From Planctomycetales bacterium (lineage in GTDB: Bacteria; Planctomycetota; Planctomycetia; Pirellulales; Lacipirellulaceae), in assembly GCA_020427145.1 (NCBI GenBank), contig JAGQOU010000338.1:1406-65405 (forward strand): DNA of 64,000 nucleotides. The letters are read 5' to 3'. Position 1 is the first letter of the stretch; every line of letters begins with the position of its first letter. Below, piece by piece: positions 5,972 to 49,644 of the stretch. The notes below the pieces were generated by a model that ran no database searches, was not told where the DNA came from, and worked only from the letters and a program-made list of their open reading frames with translations. The position numbers and the translations under genes are program-made.

Positions 5972-8098
5972 TCAGCGGAACCGAGCGAATGGCGTCACCA
6001 CAAAAATTGCAGCCAGCACCAGAGACGTCGGCTCTGGCACGCCCGCGGCGAGCGTTCCGTCGCTGGTTGCGCCGAAATTGGCCGACCAATACGCGAAGTC
6101 CTGTTGGGAAACTGTCCCCGGCAACTGGGTTCGCTGCCACGCCAGAAAATCGGCACCGTCGACCAGGTCGTCCGCATTGAAGTCGCCCAGCAACGCGTCG
6201 ATTTCCAACCGCAGCGCGTCGTACACGATTCCCTGGTTGACGCTGCTGCCGGGACTGGCGTGGGAGAGCGTAAGCGTATTGGCGCCGGGCACGAGCATGC
6301 TGCTGTTGATGGGGATCTCGATAAACGAATAGGGGCCCTGCGCCCCGCTGCGACTGAGGACGCTGCCGCTGTTGGGGATATCCCAGTTTGATTTGACGGT
6401 CGCCCCGTTGAGTTTCACGCGGAGGTTGGCATCCTGTTGACCGGCCACCGCAATGGTGAGCGTCATCACCCGCCCCGCGGGAACCGTGCCGACGTCGAAC
6501 TGGACGTCCCATTCGGGCGAGTGTCCGTCGGGGGCGCGCTCCCAATGGGCGAAGTTCCAGTCCTGGGCCTCTTCGCTCTGCCCGATCACGAAGTTCACGT
6601 CGTTGGGAAAGTCGCCAGCGTACTTGTCCCACATGCCGTACTGGCGGTAGTCGTTGTCGGCGCCGTGGCGAAATTCCTCCCCCGAGCGGTCGAACACGCC
6701 GATCTGCCACAAATAGGCTCCGTGATCGGCCACCTGCCAATCGACGACGCCCAGATCGAGCGCGGCTCCGCCCTCAACCTGCAGATCGTCGAGGTGCATT
6801 TCGCCCGCGGCGTCGTTGCCGTACGCGGTCAGGCGATAGCTGCCGGGGCGCACATTCGGCAACTCGAACGTGCCGTCTGCGGCGACGGTGGTCCAGTATT
6901 GGTAGCCTTGCTTGGAGAACTGAAACTCCGTGCGATTGTCGGCCAAAACGATTTTGGCGCCGGCGACGGCGTCGAGCCCCGCGACGTGCAGCGTGCCGAG
7001 CACCTGCCCGCGGTCGGGAGTCTCGATCCAACCGGGTGCGCCCAGCGAATCGTAGAACGCGCGATGGTAGTCGGGGTCGAAATAAGTCGCGGCGTCGGCG
7101 GCAAGCTGCGAGCCGTTTCCCTCCGAGTTCAAGTGCACGTATAGGGGGCCGAGTGCGCGGTCGTAATCGCCCACGGTTTCCACCGAACCGGGCGTGCTGA
7201 AGTGCTGGCCGACGAGCATGCCCAACAGCACGGGCGTCGTCGTCGTCTGATGCACGGTGAGTTCCTGCTTGGTCGGACCGCCGAGGAGCGTCTCGCGATT
7301 GGGTTGCACGATCCAGGCGCCGTAATCGTGACCGTAGTACCCATAGACGCCCAGCTCGTCGTACTCGGCCGCCCAATCGTACTTGGTGTAAACGTTCTTG
7401 CCGGTCTCCGCCTCATACGCGGTGCCGGGCTGCAGCAGGTCGGTGGCATCCTGTAGCGTTGCGATTTTGTTCACCAGATCGGCCGGAGTCGGCATGATGG
7501 ACTGGCGATCCTCGGCGACATAGTGATGGTCGAAAAGGCTCGGGTCGGCCCGCAGCACGAATCGCATTTCCTCGATCCGCTTGTCGGCCATGGCGGCAGC
7601 GTGATGGACGTCGGCGTAGACGTGAAAACCGCTTTCGCCGTCGCGCAGCACGTAGTGCTGGGTGACGTCCATGGGCATCGACGAGGAGGCCGGATAGTGC
7701 AGGACGACGTCGACGAAGTCGGCGCCGAGCGTGTAGCTGCTGGTCGTCCCGCTGGATCCCATCTGCCAGTAGGTTGAGCCGCTGACGCCAATGTCGCCGA
7801 CGTTGGCAGAAAAATAGCCGCGCGTTCCCCCTTCACTCATGAGGGATTGCGTACCGAGGGTGAGCCCGGTCATCAGGCCGTTGGTCTTGCCAACCGCAAA
7901 GGAGACAAGGCCGTTGTCGACGTTGATCGCGTTTGCGGACTCAGTCACCGTGGGAGCTGCGAAACCCGCCGCGGCGCGCAGCAGCGCCAGCGACACAACA
8001 ACCGCGGCGAGGATCACAGCGCGAAAGGGATCGCTGCGCGAGCGTCGCGCGCAGGTGGAGCAAGACAGCAACTCTCTCATGGCGAATGCCGTCAACAC
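5972..8098 (-). CDS. Polysaccharide lyase family 4-like rhamnogalacturonan lyase with dockerin-like + PEP-CTERM tail
   Basis: 708 aa with a signal peptide. VDNGLVSFAV..., YVLRDGESGFHVY, GAWIVQPNRETLLGGPTKQELTVHQ and ALGPLYVHLNS match my recollection of the RGL4 N-terminal/fn3/CBM-like architecture. The last 71 aa (5975-6187) read GDFNADDLVDGADFLAWQR...FAYWSANFG...VPEPTSLVLAAIFVV. Confidence 0.8.
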   Translation of the reverse strand: MLTAFAMRELLSCSTCARRSRSDPFRAVILAAVVVSLALLRAAAGFAAPTVTESANAINVDNGLVSFAVGKTNGLMTGLTLGTQSLMSEGGTRGYFSANVGDIGVSGSTYWQMGSSGTTSSYTLGADFVDVVLHYPASSSMPMDVTQHYVLRDGESGFHVYADVHHAAAMADKRIEEMRFVLRADPSLFDHHYVAEDRQSIMPTPADLVNKIATLQDATDLLQPGTAYEAETGKNVYTKYDWAAEYDELGVYGYYGHDYGAWIVQPNRETLLGGPTKQELTVHQTTTTPVLLGMLVGQHFSTPGSVETVGDYDRALGPLYVHLNSEGNGSQLAADAATYFDPDYHRAFYDSLGAPGWIETPDRGQVLGTLHVAGLDAVAGAKIVLADNRTEFQFSKQGYQYWTTVAADGTFELPNVRPGSYRLTAYGNDAAGEMHLDDLQVEGGAALDLGVVDWQVADHGAYLWQIGVFDRSGEEFRHGADNDYRQYGMWDKYAGDFPNDVNFVIGQSEEAQDWNFAHWERAPDGHSPEWDVQFDVGTVPAGRVMTLTIAVAGQQDANLRVKLNGATVKSNWDIPNSGSVLSRSGAQGPYSFIEIPINSSMLVPGANTLTLSHASPGSSVNQGIVYDALRLEIDALLGDFNADDLVDGADFLAWQRTQLPGTVSQQDFAYWSANFGATSDGTLAAGVPEPTSLVLAAIFVVTPFARFR

Positions 8099-8649
8099 GG
8101 AGACAAGAAGAATCGATCGATCGCGCTGCTAGTATACGCGGCGATTAGATTTGATGCACCGACGGCGGCGCCCGATTCGCCCGACCGCGTACCATCGGCG
8201 CAGCGGACGCATGCGATGCCCCTCGACCGCTGCAATTGCGCATCGGCCGCGGGGCTCGCCTTGGCGCCGCGTTCTTGGCAGGCCGCAGGCAGGCTCTCAC
8301 GGCGCATCGCCCGCCTGGCGAGGGCGGCGGCAGGTAGCGAAAATTCTTTGCGGAAAGTTGAATTTTGCTGCCTGAATGGGTATTCCAAATCGACTTTTCG
8401 CTTATTCGGAAATTCGGTCGTCGATCGCCGTCACGGGCGACATTTCAGCGCGTGACTTTTTCGGCGAGAAAGGCGTCCAAACGCTGGTTTTCGGGGGGCC
8501 ACGCATCTAGAGTGAACGAAGCTGAATGACCGCGAGCAGGAAGTCACACCCTTCAAGTTGTGCCATTGCAGCCGCCCCGCTTACTCGTTGCGGGGCGGGT
8601 CTTCAGCGCTCACGTCTACTTCTCTTATCTTGATTCTGGGAGACGCTCC

Positions 8650-9780
8650 ATGAAGGCAACCTTAGTTGCGCTGGTGCTTGCCGCGCTGGCACTCGTCGTT
8701 TGGGGGGACGCCGCCCGCGGCGCAGGCCTCTTAGCGCCCGGCGACGCGATTATCGCCATCGACCTCGATCCCATCATCTCCGAAAGCGGATATCCAGGCG
8801 GCGAGGCGCCTCAGTTTGCCGTCGATGGAACGCTGGCCAAGTATTTGAACTTCAAGGGTTTCAACGTCGGCTTCATTGTCACGCCGAATCTCGGCGCCGC
8901 GTCGATAGCCGAGGCGCTGCGACTGACCACGGCTAACGATGCTGAAGACCGCGACCCCGCATCGTATGAGATTTGGGGCACCAACGACGCCATCGTCAGC
9001 GCCGACAACAGCACGGGGCTGGGCGAAAACTGGACGCTGCTCTCCTCCGGCGGGCTCTCCCTGCCCGCAGCCCGGGATACCGTCGACGCGCTGATCCCGT
9101 TTGCGAATACCGATTTGTACACATCGTACAAATTCATCTTTCCAACCAACAAAGGCTCGAATCTCTTTCAGATCGCCGAGGTGGAATTATTTGGCGACGT
9201 TCCCTCGCTCGCCATGTCCGACGTCGATCTGCTGAATGCCGGCGATTCGGTACTGGCTGTTCAATACGGCCCGGACAGCCGTTTCCCCAGCGGGGAGAAT
9301 CCCGGCAATCTGCTCGATGGAAATGTCGATACGAAGTATCTGAACTTCGGCGCCGCGAACTCCGGCTTTATCGTGACGCCAGCCGGCGGCCCGAGCGTAG
9401 TAACGAATTTCCGCATCTCCACGGCCAACGACTTTGATAACCGCGATCCCACGTCTTATGAAATCTACGGCACAAACGACGTGGTCTTGAGCCAGGAGAA
9501 TAGTAGGAGCGATGGCGGCGAGAATTGGACGCTGATTACGGCCGGTTCAATCGCGTTGCCGACCGATCGCAAAGTGGATGGTCCGCTCGTGGAATTCGCC
9601 AACACCGACGCATACGCCTCGTACCGCGTCGTGTTCCCGACACTGGGCTTGGATCCCAACTCGATGCAGATTTCGGAGTTCCAGTTCAATTGGGTCCCCG
9701 AGCCGTCGTCGGTGGCGTTGGGCTTGTTTGCTGTTGCGGCCTGTGGTTGCGCCTCACGGCGGCGGTTGGTGCGCGGCTAG
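8650..9780 (+). CDS. Secreted protein with two discoidin-like (F5/8 type C-like) modules and a PEP-CTERM anchor
   Basis: The start is taken at the ATG at 8650 (MKATLVALVLAALALVVWGDAARGAG signal peptide), not at the ORF-track start 8560. Modules lie at about 8728-9195 and 9226-9690 (KYLNFG..NSGFIVTP...TTAND..DRDP.SYEI.GTND...ENWTL...Y.SY...FPT). The tail is VPEPSSVALGLFAVAACGCASRRR. Confidence 0.85.
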   Translation: MKATLVALVLAALALVVWGDAARGAGLLAPGDAIIAIDLDPIISESGYPGGEAPQFAVDGTLAKYLNFKGFNVGFIVTPNLGAASIAEALRLTTANDAEDRDPASYEIWGTNDAIVSADNSTGLGENWTLLSSGGLSLPAARDTVDALIPFANTDLYTSYKFIFPTNKGSNLFQIAEVELFGDVPSLAMSDVDLLNAGDSVLAVQYGPDSRFPSGENPGNLLDGNVDTKYLNFGAANSGFIVTPAGGPSVVTNFRISTANDFDNRDPTSYEIYGTNDVVLSQENSRSDGGENWTLITAGSIALPTDRKVDGPLVEFANTDAYASYRVVFPTLGLDPNSMQISEFQFNWVPEPSSVALGLFAVAACGCASRRRLVRG

Positions 9781-9840
9781 CGGCGACGGCTCGCCATCGC
9801 GGCGAGACTGTTGAACGCGAGAGGGAATGACCAACTTACG

Positions 9841-9878
9841 AAAAGAGCCCCGGCTGCAATGGCCGGGGCTCTTTTTTT
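9841..9878. terminator. Bidirectional intrinsic terminator between convergent genes
   Basis: AAAA-GAGCCCCGGC-tgcaatg-GCCGGGGCTC-TTTTTTT: a 10-bp GC stem flanked by an A-run and a T-run. It lies between the stops at 9780 (+) and 9911 (-). Confidence 0.75.
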
Positions 9879-9910
9879 GTCGCTCGAATTGCGGTGACTT
9901 CCGCGCCGCG

Positions 9911-11986: not shown

Positions 11987-11989
11987 CCG

Positions 11990-14736: not shown

Positions 14737-14756
14737 TAGTCGATTTGTTGCGCCGT

Positions 14757-14785: not shown

Positions 14786-14835
14786 GCGTGTCGCTTCCGC
14801 CTTGATTCTGGCTTGGCTTCAGTGAAAGGGCTCGC

Positions 14836-33330: not shown

Positions 33331-35109
33331 TCACGATCGCCGTCGCCCGCGGCTTTGGCCGGCTCGGCTGACCATCCCGAGCGTGAGCGCCAGGGCGGCT
33401 AGCAACGCTGCCGACGGCTCGGGGGTCGCCGCCAGGGCATTCGCCGACGCTGCCCCCGCTCCGAAGTTGGCTTGCCAATCGGCCAAATCCGCCGCCCCCA
33501 GCGCGGTCGGGGACTCGCCCCGTTGCCACGCGAGAAAATCGCCGCCGTCTACGTCGAAGTCGCCGTCAAAATCGCCGGTCGGGCCCGGTGCCGTGACGGT
33601 GAGCATCGTGTAACCAGCCAGATCGCCTGTGGTGAGATACTCAAGCGTGTAATCGTCGCCGTAGGTGGCATCTGTGAGAGAAGCGAGATGTCCGTCCTCG
33701 GGATTCCAGTAGCGGATAGCGTCGTTTCCCTGGACGAATCCCAAGAACTGCGTCAGCGAGTCGTCGACATCACCGGGGATTGCCAGCATGCCGCCACTCG
33801 CCATAGCAATGGAATTGTCGTGACGCGGAGTCGCGCTAATCGTAAGCGCGTAATCAACCGTCAACAATCCGCCGTCAGTGATATTGAGCATCGCGTCCCC
33901 GCCGACATCAAGTACTCCACGGACGTTCCACTTCGATCCGGCGCCATGAATGCGAACCTTCCCGGATGAGCTGGAAAAGGACCCAATCGCACCCCAACTG
34001 CAGCTTACCTCGCCGCCGCTAGTGATGTTGAGCGTGCCGTTACCCCCACGCCCGACGTAAAGACCATAGTTACTGGTGGTCCAATTTGCGTTGGCGCCTG
34101 ACACAGTCACATCGCCCACCGCGCCCCATTCGTAGCCGATGTACGCCCCTTCGCTGCGAACCGAGCCGCCTTCAGCGATTGCGACGTTCCCTCTGCCGCT
34201 AATACCGGCGTAGAGTGTCGAGCTATTCCAGACCGACCCCTCCCCCTCCACCGTAACCCAGCCAATGGAATTCTCATCGACGCCGATGCGGCTGTGTCCC
34301 TGATTGCTAACTGTTCCCCTATTGCTAATAGAAAGCGTGCCCGTGCCGGCGCGGCCAACCATGAGACCGCCGGTGTTGGTCAAAGTCGATCCCGAGCCAT
34401 CGACCATCACGACGCCGCTGGAACCGGAAACATCCCCGATAATGCCTGTAAAGTTGCCGCCCGCCATGACGTACCCGCCGTTAGAAACGGTGAGCGAGCC
34501 TATTCCTTCACGACCAACTAAGAACTCGCCACGCAATTCCCAATTCGTGCCGGCGCCATCAACTGAAACCTGACCGGTCGACCCGGGGGCGTCGCCGATG
34601 ACGCTCGTGTCTTGGCTGCGGAGTGCACCGCCTTGGGAAATCGTTAACATTCCGTGGCCGCTATTGCCAACCGAAAGAGACTCGTCGACAGACCAGCGCG
34701 AATTCAAGCCATTCACAGTGACCTGGCCCATGGAGCCCGAGTTCTGACCGACGCGTCCTGCGTTGGTCCGAACCGATCCACCTCCATTGATTTCAAGTAT
34801 TCCTGAACCGTCGACGCCGATGTCGAGACTCTCGACACTGTGCCAAGTCGATCCTTCGCCAAGGACCGTTATCTGACCGAATGCGCCGGCTTGGTATCCC
34901 GCGTACCCAGACGACGACATGAGGTCGCTATCGGAATCAACGACTATCGTTCCGCTTGCTGAATTGCCAATGTAGGCAGTCGTTTCAGTTGTCCACGCTC
35001 CTGGATCAGCCGGGCCTATGTCGCCGGTCGAGTTGATGGCAGCCCGCACCGGAGCCGCCGAGTGATACAAGGTGACGACAAGAAGCGCAGAGCCTATGTG
35101 ACGCAACAT
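33331..35109 (-). CDS. Secreted tandem-repeat (beta-helix-like) protein with dockerin-like + PEP-CTERM tail
   Basis: 592 aa with a signal peptide. About 8 tandem units of about 47 aa (G.G.L.I..GG.V......IG...GS.G.V.V.G.GS.W.....L.VG). The tail at 33334-33576 reads GDFDGDFDVDGGDFLAWQRG...LADWQANFG...TPEPSAALLAALAL. Confidence 0.8.
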   Translation of the reverse strand: MLRHIGSALLVVTLYHSAAPVRAAINSTGDIGPADPGAWTTETTAYIGNSASGTIVVDSDSDLMSSSGYAGYQAGAFGQITVLGEGSTWHSVESLDIGVDGSGILEINGGGSVRTNAGRVGQNSGSMGQVTVNGLNSRWSVDESLSVGNSGHGMLTISQGGALRSQDTSVIGDAPGSTGQVSVDGAGTNWELRGEFLVGREGIGSLTVSNGGYVMAGGNFTGIIGDVSGSSGVVMVDGSGSTLTNTGGLMVGRAGTGTLSISNRGTVSNQGHSRIGVDENSIGWVTVEGEGSVWNSSTLYAGISGRGNVAIAEGGSVRSEGAYIGYEWGAVGDVTVSGANANWTTSNYGLYVGRGGNGTLNITSGGEVSCSWGAIGSFSSSSGKVRIHGAGSKWNVRGVLDVGGDAMLNITDGGLLTVDYALTISATPRHDNSIAMASGGMLAIPGDVDDSLTQFLGFVQGNDAIRYWNPEDGHLASLTDATYGDDYTLEYLTTGDLAGYTMLTVTAPGPTGDFDGDFDVDGGDFLAWQRGESPTALGAADLADWQANFGAGAASANALAATPEPSAALLAALALTLGMVSRAGQSRGRRRS

Positions 35110-35870: not shown

Positions 35871-36800
35871 ATGAGGACGTTCGCATTCATGCTTCTCGTG
35901 GCAGTCGCTGCCGCAAACGTTGTTCGGGCCGATGTGTTCGGCAGCGGGGCGGATACGTTCGAGATTGAATTTGTGACCATCGGCGATCCTGGCAATCCTG
36001 CCGACACGACAGGAGCCCCGAACCCTGCCGGCTCAGTTCCCTATCAATATCGAATTGGCAAATTCGAGGTTTCAGAGGCCATGGTTGATATCGCGAATAG
36101 CATGAGTTACTTGAGAATTGTGCACGACGACCGAGGCCCCAACAAACCTGTCACCCAGATCAGCTGGTACGAGGCCGCCCGGTTCGTCAATTGGCTCAAT
36201 ACCACCAATGGCCACCCGCCGGCCTACAAGTTCGTTGCGAACAGGGGATTGCGATTTGAATTGTGGCAACCAGGCGACCCTGGATACAATCCGGCGAATG
36301 CTGTTCGCAATAGCTTGGCATTTTACTTTCTGCCCAGCACGGACGAGTGGTACAAGGCTGCCTACTATGACCCAACGTCAGGCGCCTACTACGACTACGC
36401 GACGGGGAGTGATATCTCGCCCACGGCAGTCGCCAGCGGTTCGGCGGCAGGCACCTCGGTCTACGGTCAGCCGCACTTGCAGGGCCCCGCCGATATCACG
36501 CTTGCGGGCGGTCTGAGTCCCTACGGCACTATGGCCCAAGGAGGCAATGCCTTCGAGTGGGAGGAGACGGAATTCGACTTGGTCAATGACATGGCTTCGT
36601 CTGTTCGCGGAACACGCGGCGCCTCTTGGGGACACTCCAGCGACTTCTTGCGGTCGTCGGTTAGAACTCCTTTTGATCCGGGTTTGGGGGCCTCGGACGT
36701 TGGCTTCCGCGTCGCCTCCCGCATTCCCGAGCCCAGCACGCTGTTGCTGGGCTTGGTTGGCTTCGGCTTGTTGCTGCGAACGAAGCGAGCGTCCCCTTAG
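35871..36800 (+). CDS. FGE-sulfatase/SUMF1-like domain protein with PEP-CTERM anchor
   Basis: 309 aa with a signal peptide. FEIEFVTIGDPGNPAD...YRIGKFEVSEAM, GNAFEWEE, RGASWGHS and VGFRVA are blocks of the FGE-sulfatase (C-type-lectin-like) fold. The tail is IPEPSTLLLGLVGFGLLLRTKR. Confidence 0.75.
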   Translation: MRTFAFMLLVAVAAANVVRADVFGSGADTFEIEFVTIGDPGNPADTTGAPNPAGSVPYQYRIGKFEVSEAMVDIANSMSYLRIVHDDRGPNKPVTQISWYEAARFVNWLNTTNGHPPAYKFVANRGLRFELWQPGDPGYNPANAVRNSLAFYFLPSTDEWYKAAYYDPTSGAYYDYATGSDISPTAVASGSAAGTSVYGQPHLQGPADITLAGGLSPYGTMAQGGNAFEWEETEFDLVNDMASSVRGTRGASWGHSSDFLRSSVRTPFDPGLGASDVGFRVASRIPEPSTLLLGLVGFGLLLRTKRASP

Positions 36801-37370: not shown

Positions 37371-37702
37371 CTCAGGGCGATGTCGCCGCTGGCGGAAAAT
37401 CCACGGTTGAGTTTGAGTGGGTATGGAAGTCTCCGCCTAATTCACCGGCGGCGTTGGCGGTCGTGGAAGCGTCCTTTCGGATCGAGTTTAGCAGCGGAGC
37501 CGTTGACACAACTGGGATCAACGCCGCCGTGCTAGAATCTCAACCAGACGTTTTCGCGATGACGATCGCAAACAGGAATGAGTCTGCTACTGTTCGGCGG
37601 CGGGTCATTGGGCTCACTGAGGAAATCTCAGGGAGTTCCGATCGTCTCGACGAGATTCGACTTTGGGCGTCGGGTAAGTTGCCAGCCGACAACACCAAAT
37701 AG
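37136..37702 (+). CDS. Hypothetical lipoprotein
   Basis: 188 aa. GAGAGGG Shine-Dalgarno 6 nt upstream. MRLLLLALAFASG|C lipobox. Beta-rich body, no domain recognised. Confidence 0.6.
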   Translation: MRLLLLALAFASGCSVPPPNCGPATITEGFPATVSIVIDNPGRQPLQVTRVTSIISQHHLLVARGAGMPAEFSDACVVTQGDVAAGGKSTVEFEWVWKSPPNSPAALAVVEASFRIEFSSGAVDTTGINAAVLESQPDVFAMTIANRNESATVRRRVIGLTEEISGSSDRLDEIRLWASGKLPADNTK

Positions 37703-38294
37703 TCGCTCCGGCCCCCCATCACGCCCCGGCCGTGCTACGCTCCGCGGCATGACACACCGCGTGATCGACTTGCTGGATTTCACCCTCGACGCCGATCAGG
37801 CGCTGATTGGCCCGCTGGACCGCCGGGGACTCTCCGAAGCTGGTTGCCCCAACGGCTGGCCACTTCGACCGCAGCGCCGCACGATCGATCTGCGGGCCGG
37901 CGATAAGATCCTCTGCGAGGGGCGCTGGCATTGGTTCAGCGAGTCTAAGGCAATCGCGTCGCCTGACGACGCGGGCGGGTACATTCACCGCGTTGTGGAG
38001 GACGTGCAGCGGATTGCGTCGGGGTCGGGTGAGCAGGCCGTGCTACGCCGGAGAGAGCGGCACGAATCTCCGCAGAAAACGCCGTACGCAGGGGTGGCGG
38101 CGATCCGCATTCCGAATTCACCGTGCGTTTCGCACGACGACGCCCCAAATGCCGGCTCGCAGGCTACAATCGCGGTTGTCGACGCGGTGTCAGATCTGTT
38201 TGGCTGCCATTGCGCCTGTTTCGAGCGGGACAAGCTCATTCGCCACAGACCGAGGAGCCGCATCGTGCCGCCACGCGGGAATCGCACAGCTGAC

Positions 38295-39179
38295 ATGGGC
38301 GCCCGAGGTTTGAGGTCTCCCTGGAGCCTGGTGGTGATAGTCTGCCTCGCCTTTTGCGGTCAGCGGGCGGCCAGCGGCGGGACCGTGCAGGTCGCGCTGT
38401 TCACCGGCTTTAACGCCGGCGCCAACGCCGGCATGGACGTCCTCAATGAATTCCTGGCCGCGTCGGCCGTGAACGACTACACGGGCATGGTCTTCGAGTG
38501 GACGCAGCGGGAAAATGCGTTTGACTGGATTCAACAGCACGCCGAGGAACGAACCACGCTGGTCGTCATCGGCCATAGCTTTGGCGGGAATAGCGCTCTG
38601 CAATTGGCCAACAACTACCTCAAACCTGCGGGGGTCGCGGTCGATCTGACGATTCAAATCGACTCGGTCGAAAACTTCTACACGGGCTGGAACAACGTCT
38701 TGCCGAGCAATGTCGAGGCCGGGATCAACTACTTTCAGCACGCCACCGGATTTCTCGAACCGCAGGGCGAAGACTACGTGCAGGGCGCGCAGAATTATAA
38801 CGTGGAGGTCCTGTTCAACGACACGTCGATCACGCACACCTCGATCGACAACGATCCACGGCTGCACAGCCGCATCGTGCAGGACATCTTGGAAAACCTC
38901 AATCAGCCGACGGCCGACTTCGATGGCGACGGACTGATCGATGGCGCCGACTTTCTCAAATGGCAACGGGGCGAATCGCCGCGGGGCGGTAGCGCCGACG
39001 ACTTGGCGTTGTGGCAGTCGCAATACGGCGCCGGCGGGCCGGCGTCCGCGTCGGTCGCCGTCCCTGAACCAGCTTCGGCAACACTCGTTGCAATTGTGGT
39101 TGGATTCGCAGCCATCGTTGGTCGCAACCGAGCCAAGATTTACCCGAGGAGGTCGGGGGACTCGTTGGCGCGCCGGTGA
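38295..39179 (+). CDS. Alpha/beta-hydrolase (lipase-like GHSFGG) protein with dockerin-like + PEP-CTERM tail
   Basis: Start placed at the ATG at 38295 (MGARGLRSPWSLVVIVCLAFCGQRAASG signal peptide); the ORF is open in frame back to 37578. Nucleophile elbow VVIGHSFGGNSA. The tail at 38913-39176 reads ADFDGDGLIDGADFLKWQRG...LALWQSQYG...VPEPASATLVAIVVG. Confidence 0.65.
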   Translation: MGARGLRSPWSLVVIVCLAFCGQRAASGGTVQVALFTGFNAGANAGMDVLNEFLAASAVNDYTGMVFEWTQRENAFDWIQQHAEERTTLVVIGHSFGGNSALQLANNYLKPAGVAVDLTIQIDSVENFYTGWNNVLPSNVEAGINYFQHATGFLEPQGEDYVQGAQNYNVEVLFNDTSITHTSIDNDPRLHSRIVQDILENLNQPTADFDGDGLIDGADFLKWQRGESPRGGSADDLALWQSQYGAGGPASASVAVPEPASATLVAIVVGFAAIVGRNRAKIYPRRSGDSLARR

Positions 39180-39185
39180 GATGGC

Positions 39186-42100
39186 TCACTCGTTGCCGCT
39201 GATCATGCCGTCGGCGGGGCCGCTATTGCGTCTGGCGACCCACGATTCGCCGAAGTGCGTCAGCGCCAGGTCGAATGCCGCTCGATGGCGTGTCGCGCCT
39301 GACCGCCGCTGCGCCTCTTCGCGGCGCGGCGTCTGCGGCCGCGGCGACGACTCGCCGGTCAACGACCGGGATAGGCCACGCTCCATTCCGTCTTGATGCG
39401 GCCCATTGAAGACAGCTTCGTCGCGCCAGGCGTCTTGAGCGATTGCGTCGTCGTCCATCAGCAACGCAATCCCGGCAAAGTCGCTCTGCCTGGACGCTTC
39501 AATCGCCTCGGCCGCTTGGTCAGAAAACGCAGCGGCCACCGCGGGCGCCAACGTGGTTCCGAAAGAGGCGCCCCATTGGGCCAGATCGGCGCCATCGACG
39601 TCGCGATCGGCGTCGGCGTCGCCATCGGCCGCCGTGGCGGTAAGCTGTGCGGCGCCAAACCCGCGCTGCCAAATGAGGAAATCGCCGCCATCGACGTCGG
39701 CGTCGCCGTCGAAGTCGCCGGGGACCGCCGGACCTTCGCCGCTCGTGCCGGGCGAACCGCCGCGGTAGTAACTGGCCCGCCAGTTCGCACCGGCGGCGGG
39801 ATCGGCAAAGGGATCGACAATCTCCACCGAATGGCCGCCGCCGTCGGCAACAGCCGGCCATGGAAAACTATCGTCGTAGGTGAAATCCTGGATCGTCTGC
39901 CCCTGGGCCCCAAGCAGGGCAATCCGCTCGCCGCCGTTCGATAGACTCGCCGATCCGTAGCCCTGGGGCGCCAGGTTCACGCCCGCGCCGTAGACTGCGG
40001 CAAAGGCAACCGGGTCCTTGGCCACCACGATCCGCGCACCGGCGGCGAGTTCGATGCCCGCGGGGAAGGAGTAGGGCGTTGACGCAAACTGAGCGATTTG
40101 CACGCCGTCGAGACTCACCGGCTGATTGCTCGGGTTGAGCAATTCGATGAACTCGAGAGACTGCTCGTCCGCCACGCCGGCCTGCGGCGCCGGGTTGTAA
40201 TGGAACTCCACAAGGCGGAGGTTCGAGGCGTCCGCCGGCGCCACGGAGGTAAACTCGGCCTCGTTGGCCGCCGACCAGACGCCGCCGCTAAGCGCACGGG
40301 CCCGCACTTGGACGGCGCCAACGATGTCCACCGGCGTTCCATTGTAAAGTTGCGCGGTCGCCGAGACGGCGCCGCCGATCGCCCGCGGGTCGGAGCCGTC
40401 GGTCGTGTACCAAATCGCCCCGGCCGGCGCCGACATCGTCAAGTCGTAACCCGCCGGCACTTGTCCGCCAAATTGGCTGAAGGTCGGCGCGGTGACGTTT
40501 GAGTAGAGTCCCGCCGAACGCAGCTGATTAAGGAAGATGGATTGGCGGTTGTTGAGGAAACCCAGCACGTTGCCGATTTCGTTGATCCATTGAGTCTCGA
40601 CGAGAGGCGTGCTGTAGTGCATATCGCCCCAACGCGCCGATTCGGCAACGATCGCCTCGGCAATTTCATCGGTAATGTCCAGATAGCGAGCCACGGACTT
40701 GGCGGTCGAGAGCGGACCATCGTTGAAGAACGCCCGATGCACGCGGTCGGCAAAGGCGATGCGGAATTCCTCGCTCGACTTCAAACTCGAATAGGGGATG
40801 GCCGCCCCCTCGGACACGCCAGTTCGATTGGTCGTGACGCTGGACCCGAGCCCCAAGGCGGTTTCCGTGTCCCAACTGATGAATTTGAAGCCCGTGCTGT
40901 CGGGGACGTTCTCCCGCACGGCCCACCAGTTGCGATGCGGCCAATCGACGTTGCCCATGTAGAAATTGAGCATCAAGTAGTCGATGTAGTTGGTCGCGTC
41001 GAGGTACGTGGCCAAGGCGGGATTGTCCGACCCGTCGGGATTGAGCCCCAGTACCTGCATGTAGGCCGCCGTCTTGGCCGATTGCGACGACGCCGAACCG
41101 ACCGCGTGCGACAGCGAAACCAGCGTGTTCCAGGCGTCCATCGTGCCGCTGTTGATGGCGCCCGAATTGATGGCGTCCCAGTCGTCCTTGGCGCCGCCGA
41201 AATAGCTGGCCGCGAACGAGTCGTCCGGCCGCTCGACTGGCGTGTAGAGCCCCCAATAGACGCCGTTGATATAAAGATGCACTCGCGAATGATGCGACGA
41301 AGGCTGGCCCAGGGCCAGTTGCGACTCGTTGCCAAACGCGTTGCGGGCGTACTGGGCCTTAGCGCCCGCGGCGTCCCACGCGTAGCCGTCGTTCGAATCC
41401 ATGCGGAGCACAATCGTGTCGAACGACGACGCGGCGTCGTTGCCGAATAGCGGGAAGTCGAGCTTGGTATTGCCCTCGTAAATCCCCTTGAACACCAACC
41501 GCATCGAATGCTTCTTGCTGAGCGAGTCGTTGCGAAAAGCGCCGCCGTGCATGCGAACGCCGGCGTCGATCTGGAACTCTTCTCCTGTCGCCGGGTCGAT
41601 GTACTCGACGCTCACAGCGCGCTCCCAGGCGCTGCCGCTGGCGGTTGAGTTGGTGTAGATGCCGGTGGGGCCGAACAGATCGTCGACGTCCATCACCAAC
41701 GACATCGTGGGAATGGCTTGGAGATCGTCCTTGATCGTCGCCGCGTAAATGCCGCCGTACTTGTCGCCGCCAATCGAGACGCCGGACGAGTTGAAGTTGC
41801 CAATGACGTCAGGGTCGAGACCGTAGTCGGCGCTGAAGGGCCCCCAGTTCGCGGGGAAGCCTTTATTGAGCGTGTTCAGATAGGTCTGCTGGACAATGTC
41901 GTCGACGAAAAAGTACGAGCTCGTCGCGGGCGACGACGGCAGGTAGCCGTCGTGGAACGCTTGCACGCGAATGGTCGTCGTGGCCGAGACAGTGATCGGC
42001 GCCGAGTAGAGCGAACCGTTGGTCGGCGAAGGCGCCGAGCCGTCGGTCGTGTAGTAGACGTCCCCCGGCGATACGCCGCTGTCAATGCTCAACTGGAAGG

Positions 42101-43805
42101 GCGCTGAGTAGAACCCATGGGGAACGCTCAACGTCGGCGTCGCAACAATGCCCGCATAACCCTCGCTGTTCGGCGCGCCGGGCGTGGGATTGGGCATGTA
42201 TTCCAGCGCCAACGTGTCGTCGACGAGCTCCGTCGCCGTCAGCCGAGGAACGGACAGCAGGTCGGAACTGACGTCGGTGATGTTCAGAGCGTGAATCGCG
42301 AGCACGTTCGTGCCCGCAACTAGGCTGTTCAGGTACGGCGTCAGGTTAAACTTCTGCGGCTGGACGGCCAAATTGTCGTCCCGATTCTCGGTGGCGTGCG
42401 ATTGATAATTCGGCAAGGCAGGCGCGGCCGCCGACGCGACGCGCACGCCGTTGAGATAGGCGACGAAGCCGTCGTCGTACTGCATATCGAGGGTCAGGGA
42501 ACCCAGCGCCGCGGGATCTGCGACGTCGAAATCGATTCGCTGGTAGACGCTGGTGGGATTCGAGTTCCACTGAGACGCGACGTTCAGGTCCACCAGTGGA
42601 GTAAAGTCGACGGCCCCGTTGGTGAGCAATTCGAATTCCGCGACCTGAATCGCAACGGGTTGGTTTTGCCCCGTGACCCCGAACTCCGTTTGCAGGTCAA
42701 ACCGGTAGTACTCGTAGGCGACGTAGTTCTCGAATTCATAGAGTCGCGTTTCAAACCGACCGGCAAAATTTTGCGCCGTGCGCGTGTCGATGACCGTGTA
42801 GTTGTTGCCGTCGTTCGAGCCGCTCAACGTCCAGGAATAGGGATCGCGATCCTCCGCGTCGTTGGCCGACGTGATGGTGTAAGCGCTAACGACTTGCTTG
42901 ACATTGTCGTCGAATTGAAACTCGTAGTAGGTGCCGGCGGGCATAAAGGCCAGCCACTTAGTAGCGGTGGAATTGTCGAGCGCCTTGTCTGGCTCTTCAT
43001 TGGTGGGCGACCCGGGAAAACCGCCGGCCGAGATTGTGCCGTTGACGACGCCATTCTCCTCAGGATCCGTGAAGTCGCCGCCAATCAGCCCTTCGGACAG
43101 TAGCGTGCCGTTGGGGATATTGGGCGGCGGGGCGTTGCCGACGTCGTAGCCCAGCCCCGAACCGCTGGAGGTCAACCAGCCGGCGTCATTAAACGAATTT
43201 AACGTCCATGCCGGCGGCACGCCAACCGACGGCGCATCGAGCGCGCCGTTGACGGGCAACAAGGCCGTCATTGGCGAGGCGGGGCCGACAAGCTCCAGCG
43301 CATTGACGTTCTCGTTGACGCCGTAGGAAACGTCGGTGCGCTGCGCCGGGTACTCGGGCGCAAATTCGTGAACTACGGTGTTCGCCGCATCCGTCAACGC
43401 GAGATACTCGCCGTCGGCGCTCAGACCGAAGTTTGCGTGCAGGCGGCCGTCGGCATCGACGTAGTCGTCAGTCGGCTGCCCCGAGGCGAACACGACCAGA
43501 TAACCGCCCGGTTCAAGGACCGTCTGGGGCGCTGCGGGAAACGTCCACTTCGCCGGACTCTGCTCGTCGTCAGTGAGGTGCCAGCCGGCCAGATCCACCG
43601 TCGCGGTCGTGGGATTGTAGATCTCGATCCAATCGGACGACTCGCCGTCTCCGTCGAAGAGCGTCGTGCTATTGGACGCCATGAACTCGCTAATCAACGG
43701 ACTTGCGCTGAGCAGATGGCGGTGCTCTAAGATCTCAAGCGAAAGCACTCGACGGCCAGGCGAAGGGTAACGCGTATCGGAGCGAGATGGCATAGGTGCG
43801 AACAC
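39186..43805 (-). CDS. Giant exoprotein: LTD - F5/8 type C - CHB_HEX_C-like - CotH kinase-like - CHB_HEX_C-like - LTD - double dockerin-like repeat
   Basis: 1539 aa. GTG start (the ATG at 43793 is the alternative). N-terminal GRRVLSLEILEHRHLLSA motif. Lamin-tail-like segments (ISEFMASN...DWIEIYNP...L.GW.L; later LVEFHYNP...EFIELLNP). Discoidin block at about 42624-43034. CotH-like blocks (HSMRLVFKG, VHLYINGVYWGLYTPVERPDD, YIDYLMLNFYMGNVDWPHRNWW, FISWDTE). Dockerin-like pair at 39558-39719. 123-aa acidic tail with no PEP-CTERM. Confidence 0.85.
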   Translation of the reverse strand: MFAPMPSRSDTRYPSPGRRVLSLEILEHRHLLSASPLISEFMASNSTTLFDGDGESSDWIEIYNPTTATVDLAGWHLTDDEQSPAKWTFPAAPQTVLEPGGYLVVFASGQPTDDYVDADGRLHANFGLSADGEYLALTDAANTVVHEFAPEYPAQRTDVSYGVNENVNALELVGPASPMTALLPVNGALDAPSVGVPPAWTLNSFNDAGWLTSSGSGLGYDVGNAPPPNIPNGTLLSEGLIGGDFTDPEENGVVNGTISAGGFPGSPTNEEPDKALDNSTATKWLAFMPAGTYYEFQFDDNVKQVVSAYTITSANDAEDRDPYSWTLSGSNDGNNYTVIDTRTAQNFAGRFETRLYEFENYVAYEYYRFDLQTEFGVTGQNQPVAIQVAEFELLTNGAVDFTPLVDLNVASQWNSNPTSVYQRIDFDVADPAALGSLTLDMQYDDGFVAYLNGVRVASAAAPALPNYQSHATENRDDNLAVQPQKFNLTPYLNSLVAGTNVLAIHALNITDVSSDLLSVPRLTATELVDDTLALEYMPNPTPGAPNSEGYAGIVATPTLSVPHGFYSAPFQLSIDSGVSPGDVYYTTDGSAPSPTNGSLYSAPITVSATTTIRVQAFHDGYLPSSPATSSYFFVDDIVQQTYLNTLNKGFPANWGPFSADYGLDPDVIGNFNSSGVSIGGDKYGGIYAATIKDDLQAIPTMSLVMDVDDLFGPTGIYTNSTASGSAWERAVSVEYIDPATGEEFQIDAGVRMHGGAFRNDSLSKKHSMRLVFKGIYEGNTKLDFPLFGNDAASSFDTIVLRMDSNDGYAWDAAGAKAQYARNAFGNESQLALGQPSSHHSRVHLYINGVYWGLYTPVERPDDSFAASYFGGAKDDWDAINSGAINSGTMDAWNTLVSLSHAVGSASSQSAKTAAYMQVLGLNPDGSDNPALATYLDATNYIDYLMLNFYMGNVDWPHRNWWAVRENVPDSTGFKFISWDTETALGLGSSVTTNRTGVSEGAAIPYSSLKSSEEFRIAFADRVHRAFFNDGPLSTAKSVARYLDITDEIAEAIVAESARWGDMHYSTPLVETQWINEIGNVLGFLNNRQSIFLNQLRSAGLYSNVTAPTFSQFGGQVPAGYDLTMSAPAGAIWYTTDGSDPRAIGGAVSATAQLYNGTPVDIVGAVQVRARALSGGVWSAANEAEFTSVAPADASNLRLVEFHYNPAPQAGVADEQSLEFIELLNPSNQPVSLDGVQIAQFASTPYSFPAGIELAAGARIVVAKDPVAFAAVYGAGVNLAPQGYGSASLSNGGERIALLGAQGQTIQDFTYDDSFPWPAVADGGGHSVEIVDPFADPAAGANWRASYYRGGSPGTSGEGPAVPGDFDGDADVDGGDFLIWQRGFGAAQLTATAADGDADADRDVDGADLAQWGASFGTTLAPAVAAAFSDQAAEAIEASRQSDFAGIALLMDDDAIAQDAWRDEAVFNGPHQDGMERGLSRSLTGESSPRPQTPRREEAQRRSGATRHRAAFDLALTHFGESWVARRNSGPADGMISGNE

Positions 43806-45687: not shown

Positions 45688-45743
45688 ATGGTTACGTCGT
45701 TTGCAAAAAGTCCTTGCCTAAATCCTCTTGTCGCATACCCGTT

Positions 45744-46376: not shown

Positions 46377-47835
46377 TCGGCCGAAAACGAGAATCCGGCC
46401 AGATTCTTACCGCCGAACGATACCAGTCCGCAGGACGAAGGCAACCCAGCCCAGCCACCTGGGCAGCCCCTGGCGCGCGGCTCGCCTTGCGAAGCACGAA
46501 ATCACACAATCATCTTATTTGACAAGAGGTTGCGACAATTGGCGCCCAGCCTCCTCCCGCCATTGGCACACTGCCTGCGGCGGATCTCTCACGCCAAATG
46601 AACCATTCTCAGCTGGACCAATCGCAGCCCTCTCCGAATAGAAATACCACGGTAGACCGCAGGGTTGCAAAAAAACCGCGTGGACGGGCTAGCCCGACGC
46701 CGCCCAGCCGCTCGCCAACGGCCTCCATGCAGTTCCGAACTGGCGAAAGGCTCGCGGCTTGCCGCACATACTCCATCCACGCCCGCCACACGCTGGACCG
46801 ACTTGACAAATCTGCCACCAATTTCGATCTCTCGCAGGCCTCCCGCCTAAGCGATTTGCCCGCTGGTCCAGGATTGACCATTCCAACGAAGGCGTTTCCC
46901 AGCGCCCAGCTCGACGCAAGTTGTTTATCACAATCGGATTTCGGACGAGGTACGACCCTCCTCTGCTCCGGCTACGAGGCCGACATGCGGATTACCGCAT
47001 TCGCAAATCAACGGCGCATCTTGCCGCCGCCTGACAGTTTGCGAGTAAAACTCTCAAAAAAAACGAGATCATCGGCAACCTCGCGCCACCGACTGGTATT
47101 TCCTTCTACAGGGCAAATCGGCGTCGACGAAGTGGCGAAGCATTCTCGTCTTCCTGCCAAAGTGTATTCGCGGTTCGCATGACCGCCGATTTTCCCGCCA
47201 TGTCGTCTACGACCCCAGGGCAGCAGGGTCGTGAGAGCCGTTTACGCCGCAGCGTCGGCATGAGGTCACTCCAGCATGGGGGCCAATGTTGCCTAGTTTT
47301 TGACACGAAGAGGGCGTCGAGCTTGTCGCTTGGCAGCGGGGCGCCCGGCAGGTCGGATATGAGGCTATCCGACCGTTTGCCGAAGCGAAGCTGCGGTTAA
47401 TCGCCGCAAATGAGTTCTGGAATAGAGTAGCGGCAGGGTTACGACATAGTTTTGTTCGCTCGCGCGGGCAAGTTCGGTGGCCAAGGCAATTTGTAGGCCT
47501 TGGCTACCAAGCCGGCAGCGAGCGACGATTTTGGTCGCGCGCCGCGGGCAGACACTCCCGCGACGGGCGGATCGACCGAGAAGCTGCGTTGGTCATGCGG
47601 GGGCAAGCGACCGGCGCTCGCTTCTCGGTCGTCCGCTTCGTCGCTGAGCGCGATCGCAGAATTTGAGGGCGCACGTCAAGAGAATGGCGTTGCGCACAGT
47701 GGCAATCACCCCGAATTGAGACCGCCGTGAACATGGTCCGGGCGGGAGATTGCGTTGTGGAAGTCGTTCAAATCGTACGCAGTGCAACCGAGAACCAGAC
47801 TGAACAGCTCATCGCTTTTAGGAGATTTGATTGCC

Positions 47836-49644
47836 ATGACGAGGTTTCTTAAGTCGTTTGCCGCATCTCTGGGGTTGCTGGCCCTGTTGTCCCAGGCGCA
47901 TGCCGCGCCGTTCCTCAGCACCAACGATTTCATCATCGCGATCGACACCGACCCGGCGAATTTGCCGAGCAACTACCCCGGCGGTGAAGCGCCGATCAAC
48001 GCCCTTGATGGCGCAAGCACGTCGAAGTATCTGAACTTCGCCAAACTAAACTCAGGCATTATCGTGCAGCCGTTCATTGGCAGTACGACGGTCCAAAGCA
48101 TCCAGCTGACCACTGGTGACGATGCGGTCGAGCGGGATCCCTTTTCGTGGGAGTTGTATGGGACGAACGATCCGCTGTCGTCGGTCGACAATGGCGACGG
48201 AAGTGCGGAGAATTGGACGTTGATCGCGCAAAACGACGCAAACTTGCCGGAGGAGCGTCAAACGCTTGGCCCCGTGCAATCGTTTAGCAATTCGACGTCG
48301 TACTCGGCCTACCGCGTCCTCTTCCCCACCGTCAAAGACCCTGGCGGGGCCAACTCGATGCAGATTGCTGACATTGGGCTGTACGAATCAAACGACGCCA
48401 GTGGTCTGAGCGTTTGGGACGCATTTGAAACTGACGTTGTCGCGTTCGCCTATGCCCAACCCGATTCGAGATACTTCGACTACGAGGGCCCGGAAAACGT
48501 GCTTGACGGCAGCACGTTGGTACCGCGAGCTCCGCAGAGCGGCTATCCTGCGGCCGAGGGCCCGACGAATATCCTCGATGGCAACAGCGGAACGAAGTTC
48601 CTGAACTTCGGCGACGTGAACTCGGGCTTCATCGTCACCCCCGCATCGGGTGCGGCGCAAGTGCAAAGCTTTCAGATTACCACGGCCAACGACGCCGCGG
48701 TACGCGATCCGGGAAGCTGGCAGCTATACGGCACGAACGATCCGATCGTCAGCCTCGACAACAGCTACGGCGACGCCGAAAGCTGGACCCTGCTGGACGG
48801 AGGCGACTTGGCGTTGCCCGATGAGCGCTTCACCATGGGATCCGTCGTGCCGGTGAGCAACGCCGGGACGTACACGTCCTACAAGATGGTGTTCCCCACG
48901 GTCAAAGGCCCCAATGACGGCACCCTGCAGTTCGCCGACATGTCCTTTTACACTTCGACCGACGGCACCGGGTCCAACATCCTGGCGCCGGGAGATGCGA
49001 TCCTGGCGATCGACGAATCCCCGGCGACGCAGCTTACCAAATATCTTAACTTCGGCGGCGAGCGCAGCGGCTTGATTGTGACGCCCGACGCCGGCGCCAA
49101 GGTGCTGACGGGCTTCCAGATCACGACCGCCAACGACTTTGATTCGCGCGATCCGACAAGCTATGAGATTTACGGCACGAACGATCCGATCACCAGCGAA
49201 GCCAACGGCAACGGCGACAGCGAGAACTGGACGTTGATTTCCTCGGGCGCCCTGGATCTGCCGTTGGAGCGTCAAACAGATGACGAGCTAATCTCGTTTG
49301 CCAACTCGACTGCTTATGCATCGTACAAGGTCATCTTCCCGACCCTGAGGGATCCCGGCGAGAACTTTGACAACTCGATGCAGATTGCCAACATCCAGTT
49401 CTTTGACGATTCGGTCGGCGTCGACGTCGACCTGAACGACGACGGCAAGGTCGATGGCGCCGACTTCCTGCTGATCCAGCGGACCAACCCCGCGTTGACC
49501 GGCGACTGGCAAAGTCAGTTCGGCGCGACCGGGCTGGCCTCGGCCGCCGCGGCGGGCGTGCCGGAACCGACTTCGCTGGTCTTGGTCGTTGCGGCGGCTG
49601 CCCTGATGGCAGCCGCCGGCCGCGGCCGGATCGGACGGAGCTAG
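47836..49644 (+). CDS. Secreted protein with three discoidin-like modules, dockerin-like repeat and PEP-CTERM anchor
   Basis: Start at the ATG at 47836 (AGGAG 12 nt upstream; MTRFLKSFAASLGLLALLSQAHA). Modules at about 47911-48387, 48415-48951 (with a partial internal duplication of the N-terminal strand) and 48976-49404. Dockerin-like segment at 49426-49524 (DLNDDGKVDGADFLLIQR...DWQSQFG). VPEPTSLVLVVAAAAL at 49555-49641. Confidence 0.85.
   Translation: MTRFLKSFAASLGLLALLSQAHAAPFLSTNDFIIAIDTDPANLPSNYPGGEAPINALDGASTSKYLNFAKLNSGIIVQPFIGSTTVQSIQLTTGDDAVERDPFSWELYGTNDPLSSVDNGDGSAENWTLIAQNDANLPEERQTLGPVQSFSNSTSYSAYRVLFPTVKDPGGANSMQIADIGLYESNDASGLSVWDAFETDVVAFAYAQPDSRYFDYEGPENVLDGSTLVPRAPQSGYPAAEGPTNILDGNSGTKFLNFGDVNSGFIVTPASGAAQVQSFQITTANDAAVRDPGSWQLYGTNDPIVSLDNSYGDAESWTLLDGGDLALPDERFTMGSVVPVSNAGTYTSYKMVFPTVKGPNDGTLQFADMSFYTSTDGTGSNILAPGDAILAIDESPATQLTKYLNFGGERSGLIVTPDAGAKVLTGFQITTANDFDSRDPTSYEIYGTNDPITSEANGNGDSENWTLISSGALDLPLERQTDDELISFANSTAYASYKVIFPTLRDPGENFDNSMQIANIQFFDDSVGVDVDLNDDGKVDGADFLLIQRTNPALTGDWQSQFGATGLASAAAAGVPEPTSLVLVVAAAALMAAAGRGRIGRS

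Follow-up and report, generated by a model that had tools for sequence, protein, structure and literature searches.

A dockerin-like half-module ahead of the PEP-CTERM signal in unrelated secreted proteins of Planctomycetes

The window analyzed in this work, namely a stretch of 64,000 nucleotides of contig JAGQOU010000338.1 from a Planctomycetales bacterium of the Lacipirellulaceae, encodes four unrelated secreted proteins that end with the same tail of about 80 residues. In all four proteins this tail is composed of a 12-residue loop, a DFLxWQR motif (DFLLIQR in one copy), a spacer of 7 to 14 amino acids (aa), a W-x3-[FY]-G helix, a linker, and a terminal signal in which [VT]PEP precedes a hydrophobic segment and a basic end. 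This cassette is an undescribed and very common composite of two known elements, the PEP-CTERM signal and a dockerin, the latter in the form of a specialized, decayed subtype. We lean slightly towards the reading that the cassette contains a "half-dockerin," that is, a dockerin-derived hairpin with a single Ca site that is welded some 10 to 12 residues ahead of PEP-CTERM, is shuffled with it as a unit, and would act as a Ca-dependent contact module at the envelope.

A hidden Markov model (HMM) constructed from 13 metagenomic modules only, and containing no sequence of the window, was run on the six-frame translation of the window and on 20 shuffled windows. Six modules were matched, with E values of 1.4e-21, 3.4e-21, 1.9e-14, 1.2e-11, 1.8e-10, and 5.2e-4, and the shuffled windows gave no match. 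The six modules correspond to the four cassettes and to two further open reading frames (ORFs) of the window, the weakest match being the discoidin copy (E 5.2e-4). A sequence-only reading of this DNA had already placed a common tail at the ends of the four proteins and had considered the passengers to be unrelated. Both statements hold, as the HMM agrees with the direct reading on the positions, and the passengers were assigned differing Pfam/NCBIfam domains: PL4 domains, TIGR04393 repeats, a weak alpha/beta-hydrolase match, and discoidin/DUF5000 domains.

The first cassette terminates a PL4 rhamnogalacturonan-lyase-like protein (5972-8098, minus strand). Its Ca loop and helix 1, DFNADDLVDGADFLAWQR, correspond to aa 639-656 (6131-6184; HMM E 1.9e-14) and are followed by the loop-less helix 2, DFAYWSANFG (6071-6100), a 10-aa linker, and the PEP-CTERM signal VPEPTSLVLAAIFVVTPFARFR (5972-6040, including the stop codon). 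The second belongs to a T5SS/PEP-CTERM-repeat protein (33331-35109, minus strand) with seven TIGR04393 "T5SS/PEP-CTERM-associated" repeats, annotated as "hypothetical protein" in the NCBI MAG from which the window derives (KDA44_*, MCA92373xx). It consists of the Ca loop and helix 1, DFDGDFDVDGGDFLAWQR (33520-33573; HMM E 1.4e-21), helix 2, DLADWQANFG (33460-33489), an 11-aa linker, and a signal made up of TPEP, a transmembrane stretch, and RGRRRS (33331-33426). The third is found on the plus strand at the end of an alpha/beta-hydrolase-like ORF (37578-39179), with the Ca loop and helix 1, DFDGDGLIDGADFLKWQR (38916-38969; HMM E 3.4e-21), helix 2, DDLALWQSQYG (38997-39029), a 10-aa linker, and VPEP, a transmembrane stretch, and a basic tail (39060-39179). 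This ORF is probably over-extended, because a signal-peptide-like start, MGARGLRSPWSLVVIVCLAFCGQRAASG, is present at 38295, so that the real product would comprise 294 aa; the 239 codons upstream (37578-38294) gave no Pfam match. The fourth and most divergent copy closes a protein with three discoidin/DUF5000 domains on the plus strand (47755-49644, likely start at 47836). Its Ca loop and helix 1, DLNDDGKVDGADFLLIQR (49429-49482; HMM E 5.2e-4, Dockerin_1 E 0.0087), have DFLLIQR in place of DFLxWQR, and are followed by a shortened spacer, helix 2, GDWQSQFG (49501-49524), an 11-aa linker, and VPEP, a transmembrane stretch, and GRGRIGRS (49558-49644).

All four first segments, DFNADDLVDGAD, DFDGDFDVDGGD, DFDGDGLIDGAD, and DLNDDGKVDGAD, have D or N at loop positions 1, 3, 5, 9, and 12. 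The consensus of this one-loop form is DFDxDGxVDGxDFLxWQR, representing an intact Ca loop with its helix, followed by the loop-less DLxxWxxx[FY]G. In each of the four copies the linker between FG and xPEP is rich in Ala, Gly, and Ser and measures 10 or 11 aa. By inspection, the four proteins also carry signal peptides, MTRFLKSFAASLGLLALLSQAHA/AP, MLRHIGSALLVVTLYHSAAPVRA/AI, MGARGLRSPWSLVVIVCLAFCGQRAASG, and ...AVILAAVVVSLALLRAAAGFAAP.

Several consistent lines of evidence relate the first element to dockerins, although the dockerin matches of the window copies all lie below the curated thresholds. Apart from PEP-CTERM and a single EF-hand_1 match (E 0.08), Dockerin_1 (PF00404) was the only Pfam domain family matched by the modules of the window; the two-loop modules described below scored 20.2 and 20.0 bits with profile positions 1-50 aligned, and two of the one-loop modules scored 17.9 and 14.1 bits, the other two giving no match. 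Among 76 full-length relatives, 30 had Dockerin_1 matches at E <= 0.01, the best at 3.9e-22, and the example displayed carries several tandem modules. The strongest of these scores are probably due to multi-copy proteins; P0015, which has several tandem modules, is barely above the cut-off. When profiles of the module were compared with PDB sequences, dockerins represented 11 of 16 and 7 of 15 of the matches listed (best E 2.9e-4), including 6kg9, 6kgc, 6kge, 2vn5/6, 5lxv, 1daq, and 8ajy. A one-loop module modeled by AlphaFold2 (AF2) from a 24-sequence alignment had a predicted local distance difference test score (pLDDT) of 84, with residues 10-45 above 90; values above 90 apply to the Ca loop and helix 1 of the hydrolase cassette. 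The model shows a coil with the loop (residues 1-17 being coil), a helix at 18-25, a connector, and a second helix at 35-44, and 12 of its 14 listed Foldseek matches in the PDB were dockerins (TM scores of 0.46-0.62, best E 0.8). The canonical EF-hand (PF00036/PF13499) was considered and rejected because AF2 predicts no entering helix ahead of the loop; EF-hand_1 matched only the one window module of six mentioned above, and 4 of the 76 relatives. Taken together, these data support the assignment of the first element as a dockerin-type Ca loop plus helix at sub-threshold level, and the positions of the ligands suggest that the module may bind Ca.

The origin of the second element becomes apparent from the two further modules of the window, which were absent from the sequence-only reading. 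Each possesses two Ca loops and lacks PEP-CTERM. One is located at 39558-39716 (minus strand; Dockerin_1 20.2 bits, profile positions 1-50 of 57), near the C terminus of a 1539-aa protein (39186-43805, minus strand) that contains LTD, discoidin, CHB_HEX_C, Fn3_assoc, CotH, and second LTD domains ahead of the module. It reads GDFDGDADVDGGDFLIWQRG...GDADADRDVDGADLAQWGASFG and has an acidic tail of some 125 aa behind it. The other, at 54390-54536 (plus strand; Dockerin_1 20.0 bits), is part of a 1199-aa discoidin-like/GSDH protein (51360-54959, plus strand); its segment order is reversed, with the WxxxFG type first and the WQR type second. Alignment of the four PEP-linked cassettes with these two-loop modules leaves a clean gap of 15 columns exactly over the second Ca loop. 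W occupies position 16 in both segments, and the second segment of the cassettes retains the helix and D12. Because the two-loop relatives align with this 15-residue gap, comparison of the sequences supports a dockerin-type origin of the second element, with its Ca loop deleted and its helix kept. Type I dockerins have two tandem segments of about 22 residues, each with a Ca loop and a helix; the modules at 39558-39716 and 54390-54536 share this arrangement, whereas the four PEP-linked cassettes keep a single loop. The sequence-only reading had described the first element as dockerin-like and the second as a helix without its loop, and the present data bear out both descriptions.

At the extreme C terminus, xPEP, a hydrophobic helix, and a basic cluster were seen in all four cassette tails. 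PF07589 gave 20.8 bits for the hydrolase (cut-off 20.7) and 19.7, 14.1 (PL4 lyase, under the cut-off), and 12.1 bits for the others, the last in the full protein only, and TIGR02595 remained below 16 bits; models this short are inherently marginal. That the WQR segment might simply be part of an extended PEP-CTERM model was considered and rejected, as no Pfam or NCBIfam model covered this region in the full proteins, nor did any Pfam model in the isolated cassettes; the nearest, NF038129, reached 17 bits against a cut-off of 65.

The module is separable from the signal. Two other PEP-CTERM proteins of the window lack it, namely a paralogue with two discoidin domains (8650-9780, plus strand), in which VPEP comes straight after the last domain residue, and an FGE-sulfatase-like protein (35871-36800, plus strand), in which PEP-CTERM likewise abuts the folded domain. 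Until the domain ends, 8650-9780 and its discoidin paralogue 47836-49644 share 47% identity (E 3e-87); past this point the former enters VPEP at once, whereas the latter inserts the module and linker, so that the pair differs by exactly this insert. In the sampled loci described below (1.33 Mb, a sample centred on modules), 104 of 157 PEP-CTERM-type ORFs had a module and 53 did not. Conversely, the same type of module occurs in proteins without PEP-CTERM, both in the window and in the sampled loci, and is therefore autonomous from the signal.

The cassette is also widespread outside the window. A query with the hydrolase cassette against 5.8e9 sequences retrieved 14 metagenomic proteins (E 3e-17 to 2e-8) that share GDFDxDGDVDGxDFLKWQRGESPNPLSxxDLAxWxxNYG followed by a linker and VPEP. 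Those with a named source bear no annotation other than "hypothetical protein" or "PEP-CTERM sorting domain-containing protein" and derive from metagenome-assembled genomes (MAGs) of Planctomycetes/Pirellulales. A module-only profile, from which the PEP-CTERM columns had been omitted, was searched against representatives clustered at 50% identity and matched 7,196 clusters at E <= 1e-3 and 1,661 at E <= 1e-10; the weakest of the 7,196 may be generic multi-loop dockerins. When genomes were scanned, one for each species, more than 556 pattern matches were obtained, of which 359 were confirmed, and 79 loci were kept. These loci belong mostly to Bythopirellula, Lacipirellula, Adhaeretor, Pirellula, and Pirellulales, and the rest mostly to unclassified MAGs of Planctomycetota. 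Many of them share one genome, with dozens of copies per Lacipirellulaceae genome. The sequence-only reading had regarded the module as an optional addition separate from PEP-CTERM and absent from the two comparators, and had left its recurrence and its possible coverage by an extended PEP-CTERM model to be verified; the scans, the paralogue pair, and these searches agree with it in each respect.

A few loci carry labels from other phyla, namely L035 (a beta proteobacterium MAG), L006, L028, and L057 (Granulosicoccus MAGs), and L044 (a Pyrinomonadaceae MAG). The contig of L035 is probably planctomycetal and mis-binned, because it contains two DUF1559-type genes. The gene context of the window itself is typically planctomycetal, with DUF1559, DUF1552/1585/1587/1588/1592, and DUF1571, and its G+C content is 63.6%. 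Divergent one-loop or two-segment dockerin-like variants were also observed directly before PEP-CTERM in L010, L041, L062, L077, L079, L050, L036, and L068, examples being ...DxNxDxxxDxxDFxxF[KR]xxYDxxNGAGAF... and two copies of DG[LF]DLGILLGxW, each ahead of VPEP. Because such variants precede PEP-CTERM too, the pairing of a dockerin-like module with this signal is broader than the WQR subtype.

Within the family, the spacing between module and signal is well preserved. The motif was present in 141 of the best representatives, and in 108 of these xPEP lies no more than 90 aa past the last module. Between FG, the end of helix 2, and xPEP there are 9-12 aa in 88 of 103 representatives and, among the one-loop copies from the loci, in 64 of 76; the distance is 10-13 aa in 10 of 11 two-loop copies with PEP-CTERM, and similar in most single-segment copies with PEP-CTERM. 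One-loop modules were PEP-linked in 76 of 85 cases and two-loop modules in 11 of 25 (odds ratio 10.7, Fisher p 7e-6; since the sequences are related, these figures are indicative only). Two one-loop loci counted as having no PEP-CTERM, L020 and L050, still encode PEP-CTERM proteins, in which another domain of 160-270 aa intervenes. The passengers are highly diverse, with 58 Pfam families in 76 proteins, among them peptidase M10, FG-GAP, PATR, FGE-sulfatase, Laminin_G_3, Kelch, SASA esterase, and LRR. In about 40% of the best-scoring relatives, two to four tandem one-loop modules precede a single PEP-CTERM (P0053, P0054, P0055, and P0015; range P0015-P0157).

Conservation was determined for the modules of 71 representatives with pairwise identities below 50%. 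At positions left free by the extraction pattern, it amounted to 92% for G0, 93% for F2, 93% for V8, 99% for G19, 76% for E20, 97% for S21, 93% for P22, 86% for P24, 89% for L25, 94% for S26, and 76% for N36. W16, Q17, and R18 reached 97-100%, although the pattern restricted these positions. Likewise, the Ca-ligand positions are D in 75-100% of cases and otherwise N, the pattern having permitted only D/N at 1, 3, and 9 and D at 12. Positions 4, 11, 15, 27, 28, 32, 34, and 35 are variable. In type I dockerins, positions 17 and 18 belong to the set classically associated with the recognition of cohesins, which makes a conserved interaction surface on the module plausible.

Following the reading that we slightly favor, proteins with an N-terminal signal peptide would be exported through Sec, and the PEP-CTERM helix would keep them in the cytoplasmic membrane until exosortase processing at the PEP motif, a step taken from Haft et al. 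2006 (PMC1569441). The half-dockerin would fold round one Ca2+ and, in the mature protein, serve as a "foot" close to the anchor. It would then make a Ca-dependent protein-protein contact, through which a common partner may retain the processed enzymes and binding proteins on or in the envelope. The anatomy of the cassette, its two-segment derivation, optional nature, fixed spacing, recurrence, and lineage are observed, and the docking role that this reading adds to them would be its weakest step.

A number of observations weigh against this reading. All six modules of the window score below the Pfam gathering cut-off for Dockerin_1 (22.9 bits), and the alignment to solved dockerins among the PDB profile matches is limited to the Ca loop. 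None of the Foldseek matches of the one-loop model was significant (best E 0.8), and the AF2 model of the two-loop form was poor (pLDDT 58), its sole Foldseek match being a polcalcin (E 1.7). No cohesin-like protein and no exosortase was found among the scanned ORFs of the window. Of 29 multi-pass ORFs screened in the 79 loci and the window, 10 were scanned for domains, and there was no exosortase among these 10 neighbours of cassette genes, which comprised CDP-diglyceride synthase, DUF819, acyltransferase, RhaT, SBF, ABC permeases, Lnt, and MurJ. Because the window contains neither a cohesin nor an exosortase, the two-step mechanism of sorting and subsequent docking that the sequence-only reading had suggested stays an inference. 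Furthermore, dockerins and PEP-CTERM both favor the C terminus, so that some adjacency is to be expected, and steric problems may arise for a cohesin-type partner if the dockerin is 10 residues away from the membrane or from its point of attachment. The strong conservation could stem from the folding needs of a 38-residue fold alone, and the statistics rest on related sequences and on samples centred on the module.

A rival explanation is a passive stalk, that is, a non-cellulosomal, dockerin-like, Ca-stabilized mini-domain serving as a rigid spacer without a specific partner, its adjacency to the signal being merely positional. We consider this rather improbable. It agrees with the duplication of dockerin-like modules in Planctomycetes that have no cellulosomes (PMC5264255, PMC6461901), with the absence of cohesins from the window, with the fact that the stability of small folds takes most residues, and with the PEP-only proteins of the window, which are presumably sorted without a module. 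These same proteins use no spacer, however, and as xPEP follows their domains immediately, there is no obvious need for a module that serves purely as a spacer. A passive stalk also leaves unexplained why the linker is kept at 9-12 aa although it is of low complexity, why it is specifically the decayed one-loop form that is found in excess ahead of PEP-CTERM, and why the connector GESPNPLS is near-invariant, at pattern-free positions, among modules less than 50% identical.

The constant spacing could instead reflect an extended sorting signal, in which the half-dockerin would help the exosortase, or a dedicated paralogue of it, to recognize or position the substrate and would act during processing. 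The 9-12-aa distance common to one-loop, two-loop, and single-segment variants and the strong tie of the one-loop form to PEP-CTERM point in this direction, and the PGF-pre-PGF domain discussed below offers a precedent. This explanation is nevertheless quite unlikely, since PEP-CTERM proteins with near-identical PEP, transmembrane, and basic regions do without the module in the window, as do the 53 module-less ORFs of the sampled loci; moreover, the module occurs in proteins without PEP-CTERM, a domain of 160-270 aa separates the two in L020 and L050, and no exosortase gene was linked to cassette genes in the window or among the 10 scanned multi-pass neighbours. As to the notion that the tail is merely the Asp/Gly-rich and Ala-rich sequence of a high-GC genome, the G+C content of 63.6% and the Ala/Gly/Ser-rich linkers are compatible with it, but E values down to 1e-21 with no match in 20 shuffles, thousands of homologues conserved position by position, and a confident AF2 fold refute a chance resemblance or low-complexity origin, to which we attach hardly any credence.

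The half-dockerin reading can be extended to a planctomycete-specific form of surface display, in which the Ca-loaded module, after exosortase processing, would dock the enzyme to a common envelope receptor. This more specific proposal is doubtful. Either a cohesin-like protein could be this receptor, or another half-dockerin complementing the first in trans, and the tandem modules present in about 40% of the relatives would then be an in-cis version of this complementation. If true, it would amount to a Gram-negative, non-cellulosomal "planctosome" made from exosortase substrates and would provide a first molecular handle on the destination of PEP-CTERM proteins.

The known systems share some features with the cassette and differ in others. 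Type I dockerins (PF00404; Doc0917 of C. acetobutylicum, 6kg9/6kgc; C. cellulolyticum, 2vn5/2vn6) have the same 12-residue F-hand loop with D/N at 1, 3, 5, 9, and 12 followed by a helix, and resemble the cassette in their descent from a duplicated two-segment module and their C-terminal position on secreted enzymes. In contrast to them, the cassette lacks the second Ca loop through the deletion of 15 residues, has WQR-GESPNPLS and DLxxWxxN[YF]G as family-specific sequences, and scores only 14-20 bits in its window copies against the cut-off of 22.9; its host is a Gram-negative planctomycete without cellulosome context, its module is followed by an exosortase signal, and no cohesin was found among the window ORFs scanned. 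With the PEP-CTERM/exosortase signal (TIGR02595, PF07589) the cassette shares [VT]PEP, the hydrophobic helix, the basic cluster, and the occurrence on proteins with signal peptides. The PEP-CTERM models span 24 positions and end at the PEP motif, whereas the 38-residue module and the 9-12-aa linker lie outside them.

In archaea, the PGF-pre-PGF domain precedes the PGF-CTERM/archaeosortase signal and has neither a Ca loop nor dockerin ancestry. Like the module of the cassette, it is a conserved domain located N-terminal of a sortase-family signal on diverse passengers, and by analogy only it may come closest, as a concept, to a domain coupled to a signal of the sortase class; the cassette is unrelated in sequence, bacterial, and dockerin-derived. 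The domain is listed as IPR026453 in a table of PMC5244752.

A further comparison is provided by sortase-anchored cellulosome scaffoldins, which combine cohesin with LPXTG, e.g., ScaE of Ruminococcus flavefaciens. They likewise unite a module of the cohesin-dockerin type and a sortase-class anchor signal in a single protein, but there the anchored protein bears the cohesin and the enzymes the dockerin, whereas here the enzymes bear both the dockerin-like module and the anchor.

In Planctomycetes, R. baltica has been reported to possess 12 PEP-CTERM proteins and the EpsH homologue RB2461 (PMC1569441), as well as a dockerin-bearing xylanase (PMC2838879). Dockerin expansions were described in kelp-associated planctomycetes (PMC5264255), dockerin-tagged sulfatases in Lacipirellula parvula (PMC6995999), and a "planctosome" cohesin/dockerin hypothesis was put forward for Nemodlikiaceae (Andrei et al. 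2019, PMC6461901), with a giant LTD-bearing protein as the proposed membrane-tethering part (PMC6461901). These planctosome-type systems likewise place dockerin-type modules on non-cellulolytic secreted planctomycete proteins, and the 39186-43805 protein resembles the proposed tether in being an LTD giant with a dockerin-like module. These publications (PMC6461901, PMC5264255) deal, however, with canonical pairs of cohesin and dockerin in another family and make no reference to PEP-CTERM, whereas the cassette is half-decayed, tied to an exosortase signal, and accompanied by no cohesin in the window. In the literature searched, no paper had dockerin and PEP-CTERM side by side in its text; the sole paper with both dockerin and exosortase was an ANME review, which deals with them separately, and PEP-CTERM itself was absent from the best-ranked papers retrieved for its combination with EF-hand, calcium-binding, or dockerin-like.

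Two questions, namely the fate of PEP-CTERM proteins after exosortase action and the role of dockerin-like modules in the absence of cellulosomes, are joined in one abundant and highly conserved cassette, whose carriers span lyases, hydrolases, peptidases, adhesin-like repeats, and lectin-like domains. Should the module serve in retention or assembly, this would explain how Pirellulales hold varied polysaccharide-active and binding proteins at their envelope, and the cassette would represent a compact surface-display tag of about 80 residues. It merits a family model of its own, as there is currently no curated Pfam/NCBIfam coverage.

Several additional features were observed in the neighbourhood of these genes. 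A DUF1559/N-methyl (pilin-like) gene often follows PEP-CTERM genes on the same strand within 300 nt; in the window it is located at 49693-50805 after 47755-49644, and further cases are L035:10339, L035:15919, and the read-through regions of L055 and L078. Such a neighbour was noted for 8 of the 104 module-bearing ORFs and for 4 of the 53 module-less ones, compared with a background frequency of about 0.5% (0.016 motifs per kb per strand). A module-specific neighbour was therefore rejected; because the rates are alike with and without the module, the link is to PEP-CTERM genes generally.

Modules without PEP-CTERM precede acidic, Ala-rich tails of 80-200 aa in the window (39186-39560, minus strand; 54537-54959, plus strand) and in L015, L022, L043, L048, L049, L054, L064, and L078. 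These tails often terminate in a short motif resembling D-x-[AV]-F-[AE]-x-[WL], as in VFDAVFAEWESVL, VDQMFAEWYEGS, AAAFEQWGDEF, and ENVLDRIFAIL, the window copy being AAFDLALTHFGESW, and this end motif may be a second kind of C-terminal signal. Both giant dockerin-bearing proteins of the window start with an LE(I/P)LEHRHLL/LEPRHLL motif (43700-43805, minus strand; 51400-51480, plus strand), which we take to be a planctomycete extracellular N-terminal motif and for which the domain scan gave no Pfam model match. Finally, a discoidin-like domain, GDAI[IV]AID...YPGGE.P..A.DG...KYLNF...GFIVTP, is found in four proteins of the window (8650-9780; 47836-49644; about 52400-52900, within 51360-54959; and 39186-43805), the endings of which differ: PEP-CTERM only, a half-dockerin with PEP-CTERM, or a two-loop dockerin with an acidic tail.

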